DNA from: a phage
Sequence record: PZ019082.1
DNA: 40,613 nt
Strand: one strand, 5' to 3'
Shown here: positions 1,820-40,169 of the stretch, piece by piece
Position numbering within the stretch: the stretch's first letter is position 1
Layout of the letters: each line of letters opens with the position of its first letter
Made by a program: the position numbers and the translations under genes
Notes under the pieces: model-generated
Seen by the model: the letters and a program-made list of their open reading frames with translations, nothing else
Databases searched by the model: none
What the model was told of the DNA's origin: nothing

Positions 1820-3313
1820 ATGGTTTCCGCAAACATTAACGCAGGGCAAGGGCAGAACGTTAAAACCCGCCACCGCCAGTACGAAGAATATTTTCCTAAG
1901 TGGCAGAAGGTGCGACATGCGCTTTCTGGTGACCTGACATCATATTTACGTGATGTCGGTAAGAACGAGCCAGACCCGGTTTACGGTCGCCAGCGTCAGG
2001 CCGAATATGAAGCGGGGGCTATTTGCTACAACTTCACCAAGCGAACGCTTTCCGGCATGGTAGGCAGCGTAATGCGCAAAGACCCTGAGATGATTATTCC
2101 GTCTCAGATGGAGTACCTGACCACTAACTGCGACGGCTCCGGCGTTGGCCTGTGGCAGCACGCGCAGGATACCCTGTATGAGATTGACGCCGTTGGGCGC
2201 GGCGGTTTGCTGGTGGACGCGCCCGCGGTAGAAGTCGCCACTATGGCGGAGCAAAACGAGGGCTTACTAAACCCTACAATTGCTTTCTACACAGCCGAGA
2301 ACATCATCAACTGGCGTCTTCAGCGCGTAGGGTCGGTCAATCGTGTTGTTATGGTAGTATTGCGTGAAGAATACGAGTACACCGACGGCACGGATGAGTT
2401 CAGCCCTAACTATGGTGAACAATACCGCGTCCTTGACATCTTCGAAGGCCAGTATCGCCAGCGTCTGTACCGCTTTAACCAGAAAGGCGCACTGATGGAA
2501 GGTGGCTATATCGAAATCTTCCCGAAACTCGGTAATATTCCGGTAGGGGTGATTCCGTTCACGTTCATCGGCGCGGGAAATAACGACTCAACCCCTGATG
2601 ATGCCCCTTTGCTGCCGTTGGCTGAACTTAATATCGGGCATTTCCGTAACAGCGCAGACAATGAGGAGTCCAGCTTCGTAGTAGGCCAGCCTACTTTGTT
2701 CATCGCCCCGGGCGAGAACATGAGCGCCGAGCAATGGGTGACAGCCAACCCTCACGGCGTGCGCATGGGGTCGCGTTCCGGCCATAACATCGGCTATGGC
2801 GGCAATGCGTTTCTGGTTCAGGCGGGGGAGAACAACCTCGCCAAACAGAACATGCTGGATAAAGAGAATCAGGCCATCCAGATTGGCGCACAGCTTATTA
2901 CCCCGACGCAGCAAATCACTGCTGAATCGGCGCGCCTGCAACGCGGCGCTGACACGTCCGTTATGGCAACAATCGCACGTAACGTAAGCATGGCGTATAC
3001 CGATGCGCTGAAATGGGTTGCGGGTATGCTTGGGATTAGTGACGGTACTGAAATTGAGTTCAAACTGAATATGGAGTTCTTCCTGCAGCCGATGACCGCT
3101 CAGGACCGCGCTCAGTGGATGGCAGATATTAACGCTGGCCTGCTACCTGCTACCGCTTACTACGCTGCGTTGCGTAAGGCGGGGGTAACAGACTGGACGG
3201 ACGAGGATATTCGGAACGCTATCGAGGATGCGCCACTGCCGTTAGGTGCTGCCGCGCAGGTGGCGGGAGAGATTCCGCAGTCGGCACAGCAACAAGACGC
3301 CGCTCAGCCGTAA
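1820..3313 (+). CDS. portal protein
   Basis: 497 aa ORF immediately after TerL, RBS AGAGGA, followed by hairpin terminator; size and position typical of portal. Confidence 0.7.
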   Translation: MVSANINAGQGQNVKTRHRQYEEYFPKWQKVRHALSGDLTSYLRDVGKNEPDPVYGRQRQAEYEAGAICYNFTKRTLSGMVGSVMRKDPEMIIPSQMEYLTTNCDGSGVGLWQHAQDTLYEIDAVGRGGLLVDAPAVEVATMAEQNEGLLNPTIAFYTAENIINWRLQRVGSVNRVVMVVLREEYEYTDGTDEFSPNYGEQYRVLDIFEGQYRQRLYRFNQKGALMEGGYIEIFPKLGNIPVGVIPFTFIGAGNNDSTPDDAPLLPLAELNIGHFRNSADNEESSFVVGQPTLFIAPGENMSAEQWVTANPHGVRMGSRSGHNIGYGGNAFLVQAGENNLAKQNMLDKENQAIQIGAQLITPTQQITAESARLQRGADTSVMATIARNVSMAYTDALKWVAGMLGISDGTEIEFKLNMEFFLQPMTAQDRAQWMADINAGLLPATAYYAALRKAGVTDWTDEDIRNAIEDAPLPLGAAAQVAGEIPQSAQQQDAAQP

Positions 3314-22826: not shown

Positions 22827-22840
22827 TTGACCTAAAACTA

Positions 22841-22863
22841 AGGCCCCAAACGGGGCCTTTTCT
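22841..22863 (+). terminator. rho-independent terminator
   Basis: GGCCCC-AAAC-GGGGCC hairpin followed by TTTT. Confidence 0.75.
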
Positions 22864-23489: not shown

Positions 23490-24910
23490 TATCGTTTCCT
23501 TCTCTTCATATAATTAAGTAGTTCGTCCTGTACAGACCTTTTCTCGTCTGTACGCGCGGCGACAACTTCATCAAGAGTATTTCGGGCTATTATTTGATAA
23601 ATGAATACAGACCGTTTGTATCCAGATTGCATCTGCCTTACCGGGCCTATACGCTCGATAACCTGCAGATAATGTTCCAGGTTCCACCCCTGACTAATAA
23701 ATGCCATGTGGTGTCCGCCATGTTGTAGCGACAGCCCGTGGCCCGCAGAAGCTGGGTGTATCAGGAGCATAGGTATCTCACCGCGGTTCCACGCTTCCAT
23801 CTGCTTATTGCCCTTAGCACCTTTTGCAAATGCCTGTGCTTGGGGGAATCGCTTAAGGATGCGCTCCAGTTCGTGCTTGAACTGATAGGCGACCAGTAAC
23901 GGCGCACCCTGTAACTCCTCAACAATTGACTCAAGCGCATCCAGTTTCGTGTCGTGCACTTTCTCCCATTCTTTGGTTGCTTCGCCGTCTTCGCCCGTCA
24001 CATACACAGCACCGGAAGCAATCTGCAAGCACTTAGCCGTTTTAGCGGCGGCGTTGGCGGCCTGCACCTCCCCACTCTCCAGTTCCGCGATTAACTTTTT
24101 CTCCATGTCGTCGTACGCCTGACGCGCTTTCTTCGGCAGGTCGATTTCAACCGGTACAATAATCGGCGCTTCACAACCAAACCACTCGGCGGGGTCGATG
24201 GTCAGGCTGATGTCTTTCATCTTCTGATGAATCTCATTATCGGCACCAGGTCGCGCGTGATATTCACGCGCCATAGCCGACTTACCTTTCTGTACCGAGT
24301 TAAACCAGCGGTCGGTGAATGCTGTGTACGATGAACCGAGTCGCTCACCGGCGTCGATAAACCAGTTCTGACCCCACAAGTCTTTGAGGCCGTTTGGCGA
24401 CGGCGTACCAGTCAGGTTGATGAAACGCCTAACCTTACCGAACGCCACTTTACTAAGCGCCTTTGCTCGCTTGCTTCCGCCAGAACGGCTACGGAATGAT
24501 TTAAGCTTCGTGCTTTCATCAGCAACAATAACGGTAAAAGGCCAGTCGTCTTTGCCGTAGTAGTCAATCAGCCACTCGATAACCTCGTAGTTGGTGCATA
24601 CCACGTTAGCGTCTGACTCCAGAGCCGCGATGCGGCGCTTCTCCGAACCTGTTGCATCGGCGACACTCAGACACGGGAAACCCCACTTAGTTTGTTCTGC
24701 GGGCCACGTACCAGACGCAACGCGCAACGGGGCAAGGATTAACACGCGGTCCTCTTCGGTAAGCTGCCCGTTGCGAAACAGTCGGTTGAGCACCCACATA
24801 GTAGAGGAGGTTTTACCCCCTCCCATGCCGCACCAGATATTACAGCGAGGGTGTTGCAACATGAACGAAGTCATGAGCTTCTGGTATTCACGCCTTTGAA
24901 ACTTACTCAT
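23489..24910 (-). CDS. SNF2/DEAD-like superfamily 2 helicase
   Basis: Walker A GMGGGKTSS, Walker B VIVADEST, motif III LTGTPSPNG. Confidence 0.8.
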   Translation of the reverse strand: MSKFQRREYQKLMTSFMLQHPRCNIWCGMGGGKTSSTMWVLNRLFRNGQLTEEDRVLILAPLRVASGTWPAEQTKWGFPCLSVADATGSEKRRIAALESDANVVCTNYEVIEWLIDYYGKDDWPFTVIVADESTKLKSFRSRSGGSKRAKALSKVAFGKVRRFINLTGTPSPNGLKDLWGQNWFIDAGERLGSSYTAFTDRWFNSVQKGKSAMAREYHARPGADNEIHQKMKDISLTIDPAEWFGCEAPIIVPVEIDLPKKARQAYDDMEKKLIAELESGEVQAANAAAKTAKCLQIASGAVYVTGEDGEATKEWEKVHDTKLDALESIVEELQGAPLLVAYQFKHELERILKRFPQAQAFAKGAKGNKQMEAWNRGEIPMLLIHPASAGHGLSLQHGGHHMAFISQGWNLEHYLQVIERIGPVRQMQSGYKRSVFIYQIIARNTLDEVVAARTDEKRSVQDELLNYMKRRKR

Positions 24911-25098
24911 TTTGCCACCAGAACTAACTCTTTACGTCCGAACGCCGTAACGTTACCGGTTACATCTTCAATAACCAGTTTACCGTTAGACTCGACGAAC
25001 ACCGTATCAACGGCAACAGGGCGACGGGTCTTAACGTTGAAAATCAGGTCACCAGGTACGATGTCACGTGCTGGTTTGCGGTCATATTCGTGTTTCAT
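24907..25098 (-). CDS. hypothetical protein (63 aa)
   Basis: ATGA overlap with helicase start; RBS AAGGA; preceded by promoter-like element 25132-25160. Confidence 0.45.
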   Translation of the reverse strand: MKHEYDRKPARDIVPGDLIFNVKTRRPVAVDTVFVESNGKLVIEDVTGNVTAFGRKELVLVAK

Positions 25099-25128
25099 TT
25101 CTCAATTCCTTATATTGTTGGTGTAGGG

Positions 25129-25413
25129 CTAACTATAATAGTTAGCTATTAGGTCGTCAACCTGTTTAAACGAACCAACGACAAAAACATTCGCGCCACG
25201 TTTACGCATCCGCGCGTGTTCACGTAGCTGGTGCGGGTCTGGCTTCGTGTTTTCGTCTTTCTTAACCTCGACGAACCAGACTATGCCGCCGGGGAGAATT
25301 ACCAGCAGGTCAGGAGCGCCTGAGCGCCCCTCGTAAGACAGCTTACGAACGAGGCCACCAATGGCCTCGAACATCTCTTTTGCGTATTTCTGAATCTTGC
25401 CTTCCGGGGTCAT
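25129..25413 (-). CDS. VRR-NUC domain nuclease
   Basis: PD-(D/E)XK-like motif PDLLV ... FVEVKK; 94 aa. Confidence 0.65.
   Translation of the reverse strand: MTPEGKIQKYAKEMFEAIGGLVRKLSYEGRSGAPDLLVILPGGIVWFVEVKKDENTKPDPHQLREHARMRKRGANVFVVGSFKQVDDLIANYYS
25132..25160 (-). promoter_or_regulatory. sigma70-like promoter TTGACG-N17-TATAGTTAG
   Basis: Minus-strand TTGACGacctaatagctaactatTATAGTTAG; lies within the 3-prime end of the VRR-NUC coding sequence; same architecture as 28687-28715 and 30806-30834. Confidence 0.5.
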
Positions 25414-25562
25414 GAGCGCAGAACCCAGGTTATAAACGCTCCTCCGAGAACGGCAACGCCAACAAACTTAAAGAACAGGCCGTAACAGAACATCGCAGCT
25501 ATTCCCGCGCCGAGTAACAGTGCGAGCATGGTTACTATCGCCCAAAATACAAACATTGTCAT
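25410..25562 (-). CDS. small hydrophobic membrane protein (50 aa)
   Basis: Not in ORF track; RBS GAGGGG 10 nt upstream; ATGA overlap with VRR-NUC start; sequence almost entirely hydrophobic. Confidence 0.35.
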   Translation of the reverse strand: MTMFVFWAIVTMLALLLGAGIAAMFCYGLFFKFVGVAVLGGAFITWVLRS

Positions 25563-25644
25563 AATACGCACCCCTCGCGTTTCGTGTGCTCAATACCGCA
25601 GCGCGGACAGATTCGGCAGTCTTCTTCGTAGAACCAGTAAATTT

Positions 25645-25776
25645 TCATTCCAGCACCCACAGATAAATTGCGATGAACATTCCCAATACCGCAGCCATCA
25701 TGCCGTATTGGCCCTCGTGACAATAGACACCGGCGGCAAATCCTGCCAGTAACGCGATAATCAGTTTACTTAGCAT
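25645..25776 (-). CDS. small hydrophobic membrane protein (43 aa)
   Basis: Not in ORF track; ATG overlaps last codons of DNA polymerase gene; RBS GGAG; hydrophobic throughout. Confidence 0.35.
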   Translation of the reverse strand: MLSKLIIALLAGFAAGVYCHEGQYGMMAAVLGMFIAIYLWVLE

Positions 25777-27946
25777 AGCGCTTCATCTCCGCACCTTCTG
25801 CCACAAGAGGGAACCCTTCGGCCCATTCCGGTAATTCGCACATTAATTTTTCCAGTTCAGCCACCGTGTACTCAGGTGTGTCTGGAGTTTCACACACTAA
25901 TTCATCGTGTACCGAAAGCACGATGGGGTACCCGCCGCCCTCAACATTAATCATCGCGTATGCGAGTAAATCACGGCACAGCGCCTGAGTGCAGTTTTCC
26001 ACCAGTTTACCGGAGTAGGTGTACTGGAAGCCCCACTGACGGGTTAACTGGTTTTCGCCCTGGTACTTGATGCGCACGTTAGTGGACACCTTCCCGTCTT
26101 CGTCTGCCTCTTTAGACACACTTAACCCGACGCCCGGATAAGACATAACGCGGCCCGACGGCAACGTCATGCGCAGCCACCAACCAGCGACTTTGTTGCC
26201 GTTGTTATCTGTTTCTACGTTACGCGAAAACTTAACTCCCCGCGGACCTGCAGTGAACTCTTTACCTGGGTTGCGGATAGCCGCCATAGCTGCGTCTTCA
26301 ATATCACGCCAGAATGCTACTGTTTCAGGGTGAGACTCCCGCCACATGCGCTTGATAGCGTCACAGGTGCGCCACACTTTCTTATCAAGAATATATGACG
26401 GCCGGTCGTCTTTTTCACCAGGACGTGGTTGTCGCTTGGCTTCCTGAATACGTGCCCACTCATATCCACGTGCGGTAGCGGTCCAGATGTGGTCGGGGAA
26501 AGTACCGTCCATTGTTTTAGCCATATCAACCAGGTCAAGGCCGAGGTTCTTGGCGAACTGTACGAATGCGCCGACACCGCCCGCGTAGCCAAGACCCAAT
26601 TCACAGGCTTTACCAATCTGGCGTAAGTCTTTACGTTCTTTCTTAATGTAATCCGGATCCATGCCAAACATCTTACCCGCGGTTACACAGTAAATATCCA
26701 GCCCAGCGCGGAACGTATCGAGCGCGGTTTCTTCTCCCGCCAGCCACGCAAGCCCACGGCCTTCAACGTTAGAGTAATCGGCAACGACAAACTTATGCCC
26801 TGCTTCCGGGATAATGCAGCTACGAACTGTCGATGCCGTCAGCTTGGCTACGTCAAATCGGCGGTGAGCACGACCCTTAAGTAACGCTGAAATGCCTTTA
26901 TCCAGTTCATCATCATGATAGTACCCGCGGGCCAGGTTCTGCGGCTGAAAGCCTTTACCCGCCCATCGCAAAGTACGTTTTGCCCCGCCGTACTGTAAAC
27001 AACCGCGGCGTCGGTCGTCCGACGAGCGGCCCAACAGCAGCGGGTTATATTTCGTTGATGCGGTGGATGCGGCCCCGAGGCGCATTTCGATAATCGTGCG
27101 AGCGTCGTCCGGTAAATCATCATCCGCCAGCAGGTCGTTAAGCGTCGACTTCTGCGCATTGTGGATGCGGTGCGCTGGCGCAAGTTCACGCAGAATCGGA
27201 AGGAAGTCTTTACCGGTAAGTGAGCCGCCGTATTTGCGTTGGGCTTCTTCCTGTAACTGTGCCTTGTGCTTCTCCACGGCTTCAATCGCTGCTTCTGCCA
27301 GCGCTACGTCAACCTTAAACCCGCGGTCGTTGATTAACTGGTCCAGTTCCAGTACACGGTCTTCAAACTCGGAGTTACCCCACCGCGGCAGCTTATGGAA
27401 GACTTCCCGCATCGCAGTGATGTCGCTCACGGCGTACTTGATGAACAGCGCCCACTCATCGGGATGTGTTTCAGCGGTGTAGCGGCGGATTTTGTAGTTC
27501 TTAGGTGTCGGTTTAGAAAAACGCTGAATCAGCGCCTTGCCGCGTTTGTCTTTTGCGTTGTCCGCAGACACGCCCAGCACTTCGCACAATGCGTCAAGTG
27601 AACCCGGCAGCGCGTGGCGAAACGCCCAAATCATCGTATCAATGGTGTTGCTTACCGGAATATCAAAGTCCCAGCAGTGTTTCATGATGAGCCTGTCGAA
27701 CATTGAGCCGTTGTGCCACACCATCTTAATGCGGCTGTTTGGCTTAACCAGACGGCGTAAGGCGCGGTGCAAATCCCCCGGCATGTCGCTGCCGTCTGTG
27801 CAATCCCATACCTGCACAGGCTCGTCGTCAAAAGCGTATGTGCAGATAAGCACTTCGGTAGTTGGGTGCTCTGCGTAAGCGTATGAACCGACTTTCTTTA
27901 AATCGGCTTCGGAGAATGTTTCAAAGTCTAAGAACAGGTAACTCAT
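25766..27946 (-). CDS. family A DNA polymerase with N-terminal 3-prime to 5-prime exonuclease domain
   Basis: Exo I FLDFETFS; motif A DYSNVEGR; motif B K..LGLGYAGG; motif C VHDE. Confidence 0.8.
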   Translation of the reverse strand: MSYLFLDFETFSEADLKKVGSYAYAEHPTTEVLICTYAFDDEPVQVWDCTDGSDMPGDLHRALRRLVKPNSRIKMVWHNGSMFDRLIMKHCWDFDIPVSNTIDTMIWAFRHALPGSLDALCEVLGVSADNAKDKRGKALIQRFSKPTPKNYKIRRYTAETHPDEWALFIKYAVSDITAMREVFHKLPRWGNSEFEDRVLELDQLINDRGFKVDVALAEAAIEAVEKHKAQLQEEAQRKYGGSLTGKDFLPILRELAPAHRIHNAQKSTLNDLLADDDLPDDARTIIEMRLGAASTASTKYNPLLLGRSSDDRRRGCLQYGGAKRTLRWAGKGFQPQNLARGYYHDDELDKGISALLKGRAHRRFDVAKLTASTVRSCIIPEAGHKFVVADYSNVEGRGLAWLAGEETALDTFRAGLDIYCVTAGKMFGMDPDYIKKERKDLRQIGKACELGLGYAGGVGAFVQFAKNLGLDLVDMAKTMDGTFPDHIWTATARGYEWARIQEAKRQPRPGEKDDRPSYILDKKVWRTCDAIKRMWRESHPETVAFWRDIEDAAMAAIRNPGKEFTAGPRGVKFSRNVETDNNGNKVAGWWLRMTLPSGRVMSYPGVGLSVSKEADEDGKVSTNVRIKYQGENQLTRQWGFQYTYSGKLVENCTQALCRDLLAYAMINVEGGGYPIVLSVHDELVCETPDTPEYTVAELEKLMCELPEWAEGFPLVAEGAEMKRYAK

Positions 27947-28686: not shown

Positions 28687-28715
28687 ACTATAATAGCTAA
28701 CTATTCAGGTGTCAA
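28687..28715 (-). promoter_or_regulatory. sigma70 consensus-like promoter TTGACA-N17-TATAGT
   Basis: Minus-strand TTGACAcctgaatagttagctatTATAGTTC in intergenic region upstream of 28632 start. Confidence 0.6.
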
Positions 28716-30805: not shown

Positions 30806-30834
30806 ACTATAATAGCGAACTATTCACATGTCAA
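30806..30834 (-). promoter_or_regulatory. sigma70 consensus promoter TTGACA-N17-TATAGTTAGCCC
   Basis: Minus-strand TTGACAtgtgaatagttcgctatTATAGT followed by conserved leader AAACGAGAGGAGAGA. Confidence 0.65.
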
Positions 30835-39757: not shown

Positions 39758-39990
39758 TTACCAGCATTCCTAACCTGATTAAAGAATTCGGCACGATGGC
39801 GGAGACATGCCGACAAACCGGCATCAACGAAATGACGATTGCGAAGTACAGCAAAGACGTGAACTGCGAGCGCCACGTAATTTATAACAACCGTCTCATG
39901 ACGCACGTTAAGACAAGCCCGGTATTATTCACGCGCCGTGGTATCACTAAAACAGAGCAACGCATTGCTAAAGAGGAGAGCGGAGAATGA
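39754..39990 (+). CDS. hypothetical protein (78 aa)
   Basis: ATGA coupling. Confidence 0.45.
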   Translation: MITSIPNLIKEFGTMAETCRQTGINEMTIAKYSKDVNCERHVIYNNRLMTHVKTSPVLFTRRGITKTEQRIAKEESGE

Positions 39991-40169
39991 TTGAGGTTTT
40001 AGAGTTTCTTAGCCGTTTTGGAAATAATGTATTTATTATGGCGTTCGCATGGGCGCTTATATCAAGTTGGTCTGTAGTGAAGCAACTACCAAAGATTCAA
40101 TTATGGATGATTGTTGGTGGGTTATATGTATCTGGTATCGCGGGCATCCTTTTGTGGTTTTTCAAATGA
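39987..40169 (+). CDS. small membrane protein (60 aa, two hydrophobic segments)
   Basis: ATGA coupling; VFIMAFAWALISSW and MIVGGLYVSGIAGILLWFF. Confidence 0.45.
   Translation: MIEVLEFLSRFGNNVFIMAFAWALISSWSVVKQLPKIQLWMIVGGLYVSGIAGILLWFFK

Follow-up and report, generated by a model that had tools for sequence, protein, structure and literature searches.

What are two tiny and almost entirely hydrophobic proteins doing between a DNA polymerase and a nuclease in the replication operon of a phage? The question is raised by the sequence record PZ019082.1, a stretch of 40,613 nucleotides (nt) which in its whole length is called the window here. Two minus-strand open reading frames (ORFs) of the window, A43 and C50, encode proteins of 43 and 50 amino acids (aa) and lie between the gene of DNA polymerase A and that of a VRR-NUC nuclease. 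We find that A43 and C50 are genuine, conserved and already catalogued small membrane-protein genes in a variable slot of a well-sampled phage lineage, and in this sense real but ordinary. The present analysis adds a three-gene model of the interval, a quantified measure of selection, the cassette behaviour of the two genes and a deeper conservation of C50 beside the polymerase.

The coding evidence comes from a sample of 79 IMG/VR loci around VRR-NUC homologues together with three GenBank loci, and ORFs were taken from the 53 loci in which the nuclease was at least 80% identical, plus the window. In this set A43 is an intact ORF of 43 codons in 44 sequences and C50 an intact ORF of 50 codons in 25, the starts are ATG or GTG without exception and the stops only TGA, and damaged copies are rare (a frameshift in one C50, P0179, and the lack of an intact A43 start at one locus, L044). 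The ratio of nonsynonymous to synonymous substitution rates (dN/dS), calculated as pooled pairwise Nei-Gojobori values with overlap codons trimmed and with 95% codon-bootstrap intervals, was 0.176 for A43 (0.10-0.29, n=40) and 0.171 for C50 (0.09-0.30, n=24), and the controls gave 0.122 (0.076-0.182) for the nuclease and 0.090 (0.050-0.144) for the C-terminus of the polymerase. When the same nucleotides of A43 and C50 were read in the two alternative frames, the ratio was 0.8-3.2. Diversity at codon positions 1, 2 and 3 was 0.063, 0.022 and 0.178 in A43 and 0.093, 0.031 and 0.21 in C50, that is, 7-8 times higher at the third position than at the second. A43 and C50 are protein-coding and under purifying selection, and we hold it to be highly probable that they are genuine membrane-protein genes. 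An initial annotation of the locus had made its proposal depend on protein-level conservation in related phages, and such conservation is present, with dN/dS of 0.18 and 0.17 in frame and values beyond 0.8 out of frame.

The 83 nt between A43 and C50 are not spacer but are occupied by a third ORF, B29, which encodes a soluble mini-protein rich in cysteine and histidine. Its pattern CxxCxxC...H...C suggests that B29 may bind zinc, and its dN/dS of 0.048 (0.015-0.106) is the lowest of the trio. As read from the sequence, the polymerase, A43, B29, C50 and nuclease genes form a chain of five in which every junction is an overlap: the start of A43 overlaps the 3' end of the polymerase gene by 11 nt (25766..25776), while the stop of A43 and the start of B29 (25645..25648), the stop of B29 and the start of C50 (25559..25562), and the stop of C50 and the start of the nuclease (25410..25413, 4 nt) each share an ATGA. 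The ribosome-binding site of A43 is present in every common upstream variant (44 relatives), and that of C50 is likewise conserved among relatives. In the program-made ORF list C50 runs up to a GTG at 25571, but we place its start at 25562 because the relatives and the ATGA overlap favour this position; the annotation of phage Snoke gives C50 a shorter start still. At its N-terminus (25554..25562, minus strand) C50 has the residues M-T-M, where relatives have M-K-M, M-R-M or M-M-M, and an M-x-M start recalls the dual-start motif known from lambda S-type holins. The initial annotation had described two tiny minus-strand ORFs of 43 and 50 aa with sequences like ribosome-binding sites and with overlaps to their neighbours; both ORFs lie where it had put them, the two sites can be read directly as GGAG and GAGGGG, and the overlaps are those with the polymerase end and the nuclease start given above. 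The count of two was too low, as the coupled B29 between them had been overlooked.

That both proteins are almost entirely hydrophobic, as had also been pointed out, is borne out by the comparison with all 190 ORFs of the whole window that start with ATG and have 35 aa or more, taken over the six frames. Because C50 and A43 hold the first and second rank in grand average of hydropathicity (GRAVY) among these, at 1.82 and 1.40, their hydrophobicity exceeds chance. The residues A, I, L, M, F, V, W, C and G make up 79% of A43 and 86% of C50, the charged residues number only three and two in the whole proteins, and the C-terminal ends read ...WVLE and ...WVLRS, respectively. The AlphaFold2 (AF2) model of A43, built on an alignment of 71 sequences, has a helix at residues 2-18, a four-residue turn and a second helix at 23-42, with a predicted local distance difference test score (pLDDT) of 79. 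Conservation is concentrated in the turn region, where Y18 and Y24 are invariant and H20, G22, Q23 and G25 nearly so, and on small residues, among which G12 is invariant and A11, A14 and A15 are nearly so; small residues recur at the spacing A8-G12-G16 and A28-G32-A36. In C50 the hydrophobic stretch covers residues 3 to 48. Among homologues down to 43% identity M1, F6, V10, G18, G20, A23, F33 and G35 are invariant and F4, A14, A22, M24, G40 and G41 nearly invariant, and the best-kept glycines and alanines (A14-G18-A22, G20, A23, G35, G40 and G41) again show i, i+4 spacing. Gly/Ala at i, i+4 commonly marks helices that pack tightly against each other within membranes. C50 is probably a two-helix hairpin with both ends on the inside, which is preferred because distant homologues are basic at both termini (they start MR... 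and finish ...RRK, ...LRK or ...VLK) and because the CYG-L region is a conserved break; the AF2 model, in which C50 is a single helix, is taken up below. The two proteins are not paralogues of each other (hhalign probability 1%). Neither do they look like bacterial lipoproteins such as the T5 Llp-type exclusion factors, as the residues before their cysteines (G-V-Y-C in A43, A-M-F-C in C50, read from the sequence) do not fit the lipobox [LVI][ASTVI][GAS]C.

Table 1. Positions of the three small genes, of other features of the window and of matching segments in related loci.
Feature	Position	Strand	Remarks
A43, 43 aa, MLSKLIIALLAGFAAGVYCHEGQYGMMAAVLGMFIAIYLWVLE	25645..25776	-	ATG start, TGA stop; ORF list
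B29, 29 aa, Cys/His-rich soluble mini-protein, MKIYWFYEEDCRICPRCGIEHTKREGCVL	25559..25648	-	read from sequence
C50, 50 aa, MTMFVFWAIVTMLALLLGAGIAAMFCYGLFFKFVGVAVLGGAFITWVLRS	25410..25562	-	ATG start; ORF list
GGAG ribosome-binding site of A43	25787..25790	-	10 nt 5' of ATG, within the polymerase coding sequence
GAGGGG ribosome-binding site of C50	25571..25576	-	8 nt 5' of ATG, within B29
DNA polymerase A gene, 726 aa	25766..27946	-	ORF list; called DNA polymerase I in relatives
VRR-NUC/Holliday-junction-resolvase-like nuclease, 94 aa	25129..25413	-	ORF list; phrog_93 and phrog_5702; annotated alike in relatives
Sigma-70-like promoter, TTGACA-17-TATAGT, 11/12	28687..28715	-	consensus scan only; upstream of the gene for the single-stranded-DNA-binding protein
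Sigma-70-like promoter, 11/12	30806..30834	-	consensus scan
Sigma-70-like site, 10/12	25132..25160	-	directly past the nuclease gene; consensus scan
Strong terminator-like hairpin	22840..22859	-	end of the operon; consensus scan
Distant C50 homologues	L084 318-470; L085 4001-4150; L086 475-678		directly after DNA polymerase A
Loci with the A43 deletion (L039, L043, L045, L047, L051, L009, L036)	~2898-3008		compared with window 25645..25776

The region belongs to a well-known group of phages. Positions 25000-26200 of the window share 88-90% DNA identity with many Kagunavirus phages of Escherichia (subfamily Guernseyvirinae), among them vB_EcoS-22664BS2, P AB-2017, K1G and the BASEL phages Bas70-76, and about 80-83% with Salmonella Jerseyviruses; the number of matching phage records is 430 at high stringency and 626 at lower stringency. 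By sequence the window is that of a Kagunavirus-like (Guernseyvirinae) virulent phage of E. coli. In GenBank relatives A43, B29 and C50 are annotated as coding sequences of 132, 90 and 153 nt, each a 'hypothetical protein' (22664BS2_055 to 057 in vB_EcoS-22664BS2, Bas70_0039 to 0041 and CPT_Snoke_039 to 041), and the order, lengths and overlaps of the trio are identical in these relatives. The word 'unannotated' in the initial annotation is thus right only for a gene track limited to 60 aa. A43 corresponds to phrog_10404 (E 2.3e-30, positions 1-43 of 43), C50 to phrog_14925 (E 2.6e-33, positions 1-50 of 50) and B29 to phrog_38225 (E 2.5e-22, likewise full length), none of which has a function assigned in PHROGs. 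In the annotated relatives and the 53 loci, A43 and C50 share the Guernseyvirinae position of their family members, in the interval between polymerase and VRR-NUC. B29 is uncalled in many records, for example in K1G, K1ind2 and vB_SenS-Ent1.

The content of this interval varies greatly. When the window is counted with the 53 close loci, the trio in the order A43-B29-C50 is the commonest layout (17), followed by A43-B29 (14); A43-B29 is followed by a soluble ORF of 64 aa and then C50 in five and by this ORF without C50 in three, B29 is alone in five, A43-B29 is followed by a mini-transmembrane ORF of 23-25 aa in three, B29-C50 occurs in two, and versions with HNH endonuclease genes occur in four. 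The HNH homing-endonuclease genes encode 168-235 aa (L005, L029, L044 and L046), the 64-aa ORF (MSNKPFSKK..., phrog_25645) was found in L010, L018, L020, L026, L031, L034, L048 and L049, and at least one of the single-helix mini-transmembrane ORFs (L008, L017 and L053) resembles an internally deleted C50. A methyltransferase is also among the occupants in relatives. DNA alignments indicate how the two genes are lost. A43 is removed by a 116-nt deletion between ATT repeats, which joins its ribosome-binding site and first six codons (MLSKLI) in frame to codon 3 of B29, and the fused product of 33-36 aa, MLSKLIIYYF(R/H)EEDCRIC..., is typical of Jerseyviruses. The loss of C50 is precise, from one ATGA junction to the next, and in relatives that lack it B29 is coupled straight to the nuclease. 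Unrelated genes fill the junction in more distant phages that share the polymerase-nuclease synteny, some of these genes being small hydrophobic putative ORFs. In the nearest outgroups (L052, L054 and L055, at ~2610-3011), whose polymerase C-terminal segment is 64-71% identical, the junction holds an ORF of 111-133 aa with an HExxH-like motif (AHECYHAMNA, AHEAMHVV or VHECVHVA), which suggests a small metallopeptidase-like protein. Judged from these layouts, the polymerase-nuclease junction is an insertion hot spot that tolerates and expresses small cargo. The initial annotation had called small membrane proteins inside a replication operon unexpected, a view that finds no support in a recurrent slot for HNH genes, the 64-aa ORF, mini-transmembrane ORFs and a methyltransferase. 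Because the junction accepts unrelated inserts, and because A43 and C50 are dispensable and vary independently, their position in the replication operon is weak evidence of function.

The same pattern is seen across phages at large. By tblastn against 50,697 phage records B29 has 445 matching records, A43 has 219, of which 196 are near full length, and C50 has 121, and all records with a member of the trio are Guernseyvirinae or unclassified look-alikes. Records of Escherichia phages number 103 for A43, 103 for B29 and 61 for C50, and those of Salmonella phages 101, 324 and 50, respectively. B29 appears to be effectively core to the lineage, because its 445 records are about as many as the matches of the whole region (430/626). 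All four combinations of presence and absence of A43 and C50 occur, and on this distribution the two are accessory, dispensable and independently varying cassettes. In an index of 5.8 billion proteins the matches were at least 78% identical, with few partial or frameshifted exceptions, and came mostly from contigs of 40-45 kb; the search returned no A43 homologue below 79% identity, and a local hidden Markov model (HMM) search of all fetched loci for distant homologues of A43 gave nothing significant. A segment of the locus L067 reading ...IYLWVVE was dropped as a candidate A43 homologue, since it did not score. B29, searched with a padded 40-aa query, returned nine close relatives only.

For C50 the picture is deeper. 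An alignment profile searched against 1.84 billion cluster representatives recovered three distant homologues on three metagenomic contigs (P0189, P0190 and P0191; E 8e-9 to 3e-4; 44-52% identity). The polymerases beside them are 58-70% identical to that of the window, and a VRR-NUC homologue of 49-55% identity lies further downstream, behind variable inserts. In one of the contigs (L085) a terminator-like hairpin follows the C50 homologue, and the transcript may end there with the polymerase and C50. Because the distant homologues all sit directly after diverged polymerases, C50 is, on the evidence of these contigs, older than the split of Kagunavirus and Jerseyvirus, and its position is tied to the 3' end of the polymerase gene. 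No distant homologue of C50 was found in cultured phages by tblastn with P0189 and P0191, and a scan of IMG/VR with a diverse C50 alignment returned close relatives only.

The operon around the trio lies on the minus strand and contains, in order, the genes of the single-stranded-DNA-binding protein, DNA polymerase A, the small ORFs, the VRR-NUC/resolvase-like nuclease (a weak match to Pfam VRR_NUC), a 63-aa ORF and an SNF2-type helicase. In a consensus scan the promoter-like site upstream of the first of these (Table 1) is the closest strong one for the single-stranded-DNA-binding protein, polymerase, A43, B29, C50 and nuclease genes, and we infer that it would drive all of them. The same scan gave no strong minus-strand terminator-like site between this promoter and the small genes and no convincing terminator between the polymerase and the nuclease. 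A structured RNA instead of coding sequence was rejected for the small-ORF region, since a search of positions 24500-26500 at E up to 1 gave no hit in Rfam. Elsewhere in the window, a further small hydrophobic ORF at 39987..40169 on the plus strand (60 aa, at the limit of the 60-aa track; GRAVY 1.12) matches phrog_10956 (function unknown) at E 5e-14 and is probably another small membrane-protein gene.

How could the two proteins work? The explanation that we favour, and to which we give about an even chance, is that A43 and C50 are dispensable inner-membrane accessory proteins that act on a membrane target and are not parts of the replication machinery. They would be expressed from the replication (middle) operon through translational coupling, with Shine-Dalgarno sites of their own, and would insert into the inner membrane of the host, in the case of C50 with both ends in the cytoplasm if the basic residues at the termini of its homologues are a guide. 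There they would act by intramembrane packing of helix against helix, either as self-oligomers or on a membrane protein of the host or of an incoming phage, and the most likely roles would be to block the entry of a second phage's genome or to inhibit a host envelope or division protein. We favour accessory membrane factors because both proteins are almost pure membrane helix without a soluble domain, because conservation centres on the packing residues and the polar turn of A43, because both are dispensable and vary independently, and because they would be co-expressed with middle genes and not with the lysis cassette. The class of function, envelope-directed factors that bind within the membrane and bring about superinfection exclusion or inhibition of the host envelope or division, is proposed by analogy and more tentatively, at somewhat less than even chances.

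Several observations weigh against this explanation. The databases Pfam, NCBIfam, PADLOC and PDB yielded no characterised homologue of A43 or C50; profile matches to EMC6, MARVEL, PufX and COX7C in these searches were sub-threshold noise, of the same kind as the 'PufX' label on one database entry, and in PHROGs and Pfam the two proteins have only their own orphan families, Imm not being among the matches. An RNA-seq study of a Kagunavirus annotated only 57 genes and did not mention these ORFs, and the BASEL paper and the genome announcement of Snoke are silent on them as well. The AF2 model of C50 is one continuous helix of 48 residues (pLDDT 90, with a dip at residues 21-30), and natural C50 variants of 45 aa delete the five residues CYGLF at the proposed turn, because of which C50 may be either a hairpin or a single helix. 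All three of the distant C50 homologues adjoin the DNA polymerase A gene with overlapping stop and start, and such coupling to the polymerase stop in divergent phages could point to a polymerase-linked role.

Other explanations were weighed against the same evidence. Conserved (G/A)xxx(G/A) zippers on two short hydrophobic helices, as seen here, are a typical trait of peptides that oligomerise or form pores, and A43 and C50 might thus be peptides of the holin, antiholin or pinholin kind, or depolarising ones akin to type I toxins, which would oligomerise via glycine zippers and function in lysis timing or permeabilisation; the M-x-M start of C50 recalls the dual start of lambda S, and truncated single-helix versions of 23-25 aa persist in the junction. 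The two-helix structure expected of such holins is modelled as a hairpin for A43, whereas C50 is modelled as a single helix and its hairpin comes from the terminal charges only. We regard a lysis role as unlikely, as Bas70 keeps two holins and an endolysin in a separate cassette at 40179-41218, about 13 kb from the trio at 27118-27484, and the spanins at a third site, and as synthesis would fall in mid-infection alongside the replication proteins. The charged hydrophilic cytoplasmic tail of holins is also absent, the proteins ending one or two residues on, many relatives do without A43 or C50, and no holin family was matched in Pfam, NCBIfam or PHROGs. For type I toxins (Hok/Gef, TisB and Ldr), likewise, there was no Hok match in Pfam and no antisense RNA in Rfam in 24500-26500, and the genes are translationally coupled within an operon instead. 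The patchy, cassette-like and host-dependent presence (A43 103 to 103 of B29 in Escherichia phages, 101 to 324 in Salmonella phages) would also suit counter-defence factors directed at a membrane-embedded abortive-infection or other defence effector of the host, and variable small genes in hot spots are a typical location of anti-defence functions. Yet neither protein is similar to known anti-defence or defence proteins, PADLOC gave no match, and the phenotypes of the BASEL Kagunavirus isolates have been described as alike, which leaves this, too, an unlikely explanation.

The conservation beside the polymerase brings up a role in replication itself, in which C50, perhaps together with A43 and the soluble, cysteine-rich B29, would tether the replisome to the inner membrane in the manner of phi29 p16.7 or p1. 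Homologues of C50 with 44-52% identity right after, and overlapping, polymerases that are only 58-70% identical, three small genes chained translationally between polymerase and nuclease, and the nearly constant presence of B29 speak for it. The proteins, however, offer practically no soluble residues for binding DNA or polymerase, and the idea of membrane anchoring, which the initial annotation had listed, is weakened because neither has a soluble domain to hold a replication protein. Each is missing from at least half of the close relatives with the same polymerase and nuclease, because of which A43 and C50 are not required for replication; moreover, the two vary independently of one another and the junction also takes unrelated inserts. 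We therefore consider a tether rather improbable. A narrower form, in which C50 is an ancient partner of the polymerase and forms with the core B29 a minimal membrane-tethering or signalling module in the replication of siphoviruses of Gram-negative hosts, is suggested by the retention of C50 immediately downstream of, and coupled to, polymerases diverged to 58-70% identity; its chance is slim, and if true the module would be a previously unrecognised one. Finally, the peptides might be inert, serving as translational-coupling spacers or being decaying remnants, since all junctions overlap and the hand-over of ribosomes to the nuclease depends on the preceding ORF, and since deletion derivatives, the frameshifted C50 and a locus without an intact A43 start do occur. 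A dN/dS of 0.17-0.18 with frame-specific variation at third positions is unexpected for a spacer, as is the retention of specific Gly/Ala residues and of the polar turn of A43; C50 is still recognisable at 44% identity in distant phages, and relatives link B29 straight to the nuclease without C50. This explanation is largely refuted by the selection analysis and very improbable.

The results indicate that small genes which escape the usual ORF cut-offs are real here. With the three-gene model, several hundred genomes of Kagunavirus and Jerseyvirus, in which B29 in particular is often uncalled, could be annotated better. Natural variants with both, either or neither of A43 and C50 exist already and are close to isogenic, and the two genes are easy candidates for tests of superinfection exclusion, of a takeover of the envelope or of lysis timing in phages under development for therapy and synthetic biology. 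The practical value is modest, and current understanding is not challenged by these results.

Among known systems, the closest in kind to what we favour, accessory proteins acting in the membrane, are small phage proteins that act there before lysis. The superinfection immunity protein Imm of T4, which blocks DNA entry, has 83 aa and two predicted transmembrane helices. A43 and C50 are like Imm in being small inner-membrane proteins of a virulent coliphage that would be made before lysis, be dispensable in the laboratory and act in the membrane, whereas their sequences are unrelated to it (no Pfam match) and they are about half its size, without loops or tails of any length. Class II holins and pinholins, such as S21 68, have two transmembrane helices with both ends inside. 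The two hydrophobic helices (modelled in A43, probable in C50), the packing motifs of small residues and the M-x-M start of C50 resemble them, but A43 and C50 lie outside the lysis cassette, have 43-50 aa instead of about 65-95 aa, are accessory and are without a charged C-terminal domain. In phi29, p16.7 is a membrane anchor of phage DNA replication that combines one N-terminal transmembrane helix with a soluble, dimeric domain for DNA binding; A43 and C50 are similar as membrane proteins among replication genes and different in that their models are helix only, hydrophobic throughout and without a soluble domain, and in that relatives can dispense with them. In the case of the staphylococcal phage PhiNM1, cell division is blocked by the small early membrane protein Gp11, whose binding partners are MurG and DivIC (PMC11237401). 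Its host is Gram-positive and its sequence unrelated, and A43 and C50 are likened to it by analogy alone; the likeness lies in a small phage membrane protein that is made before lysis and binds membrane-associated proteins of the host.

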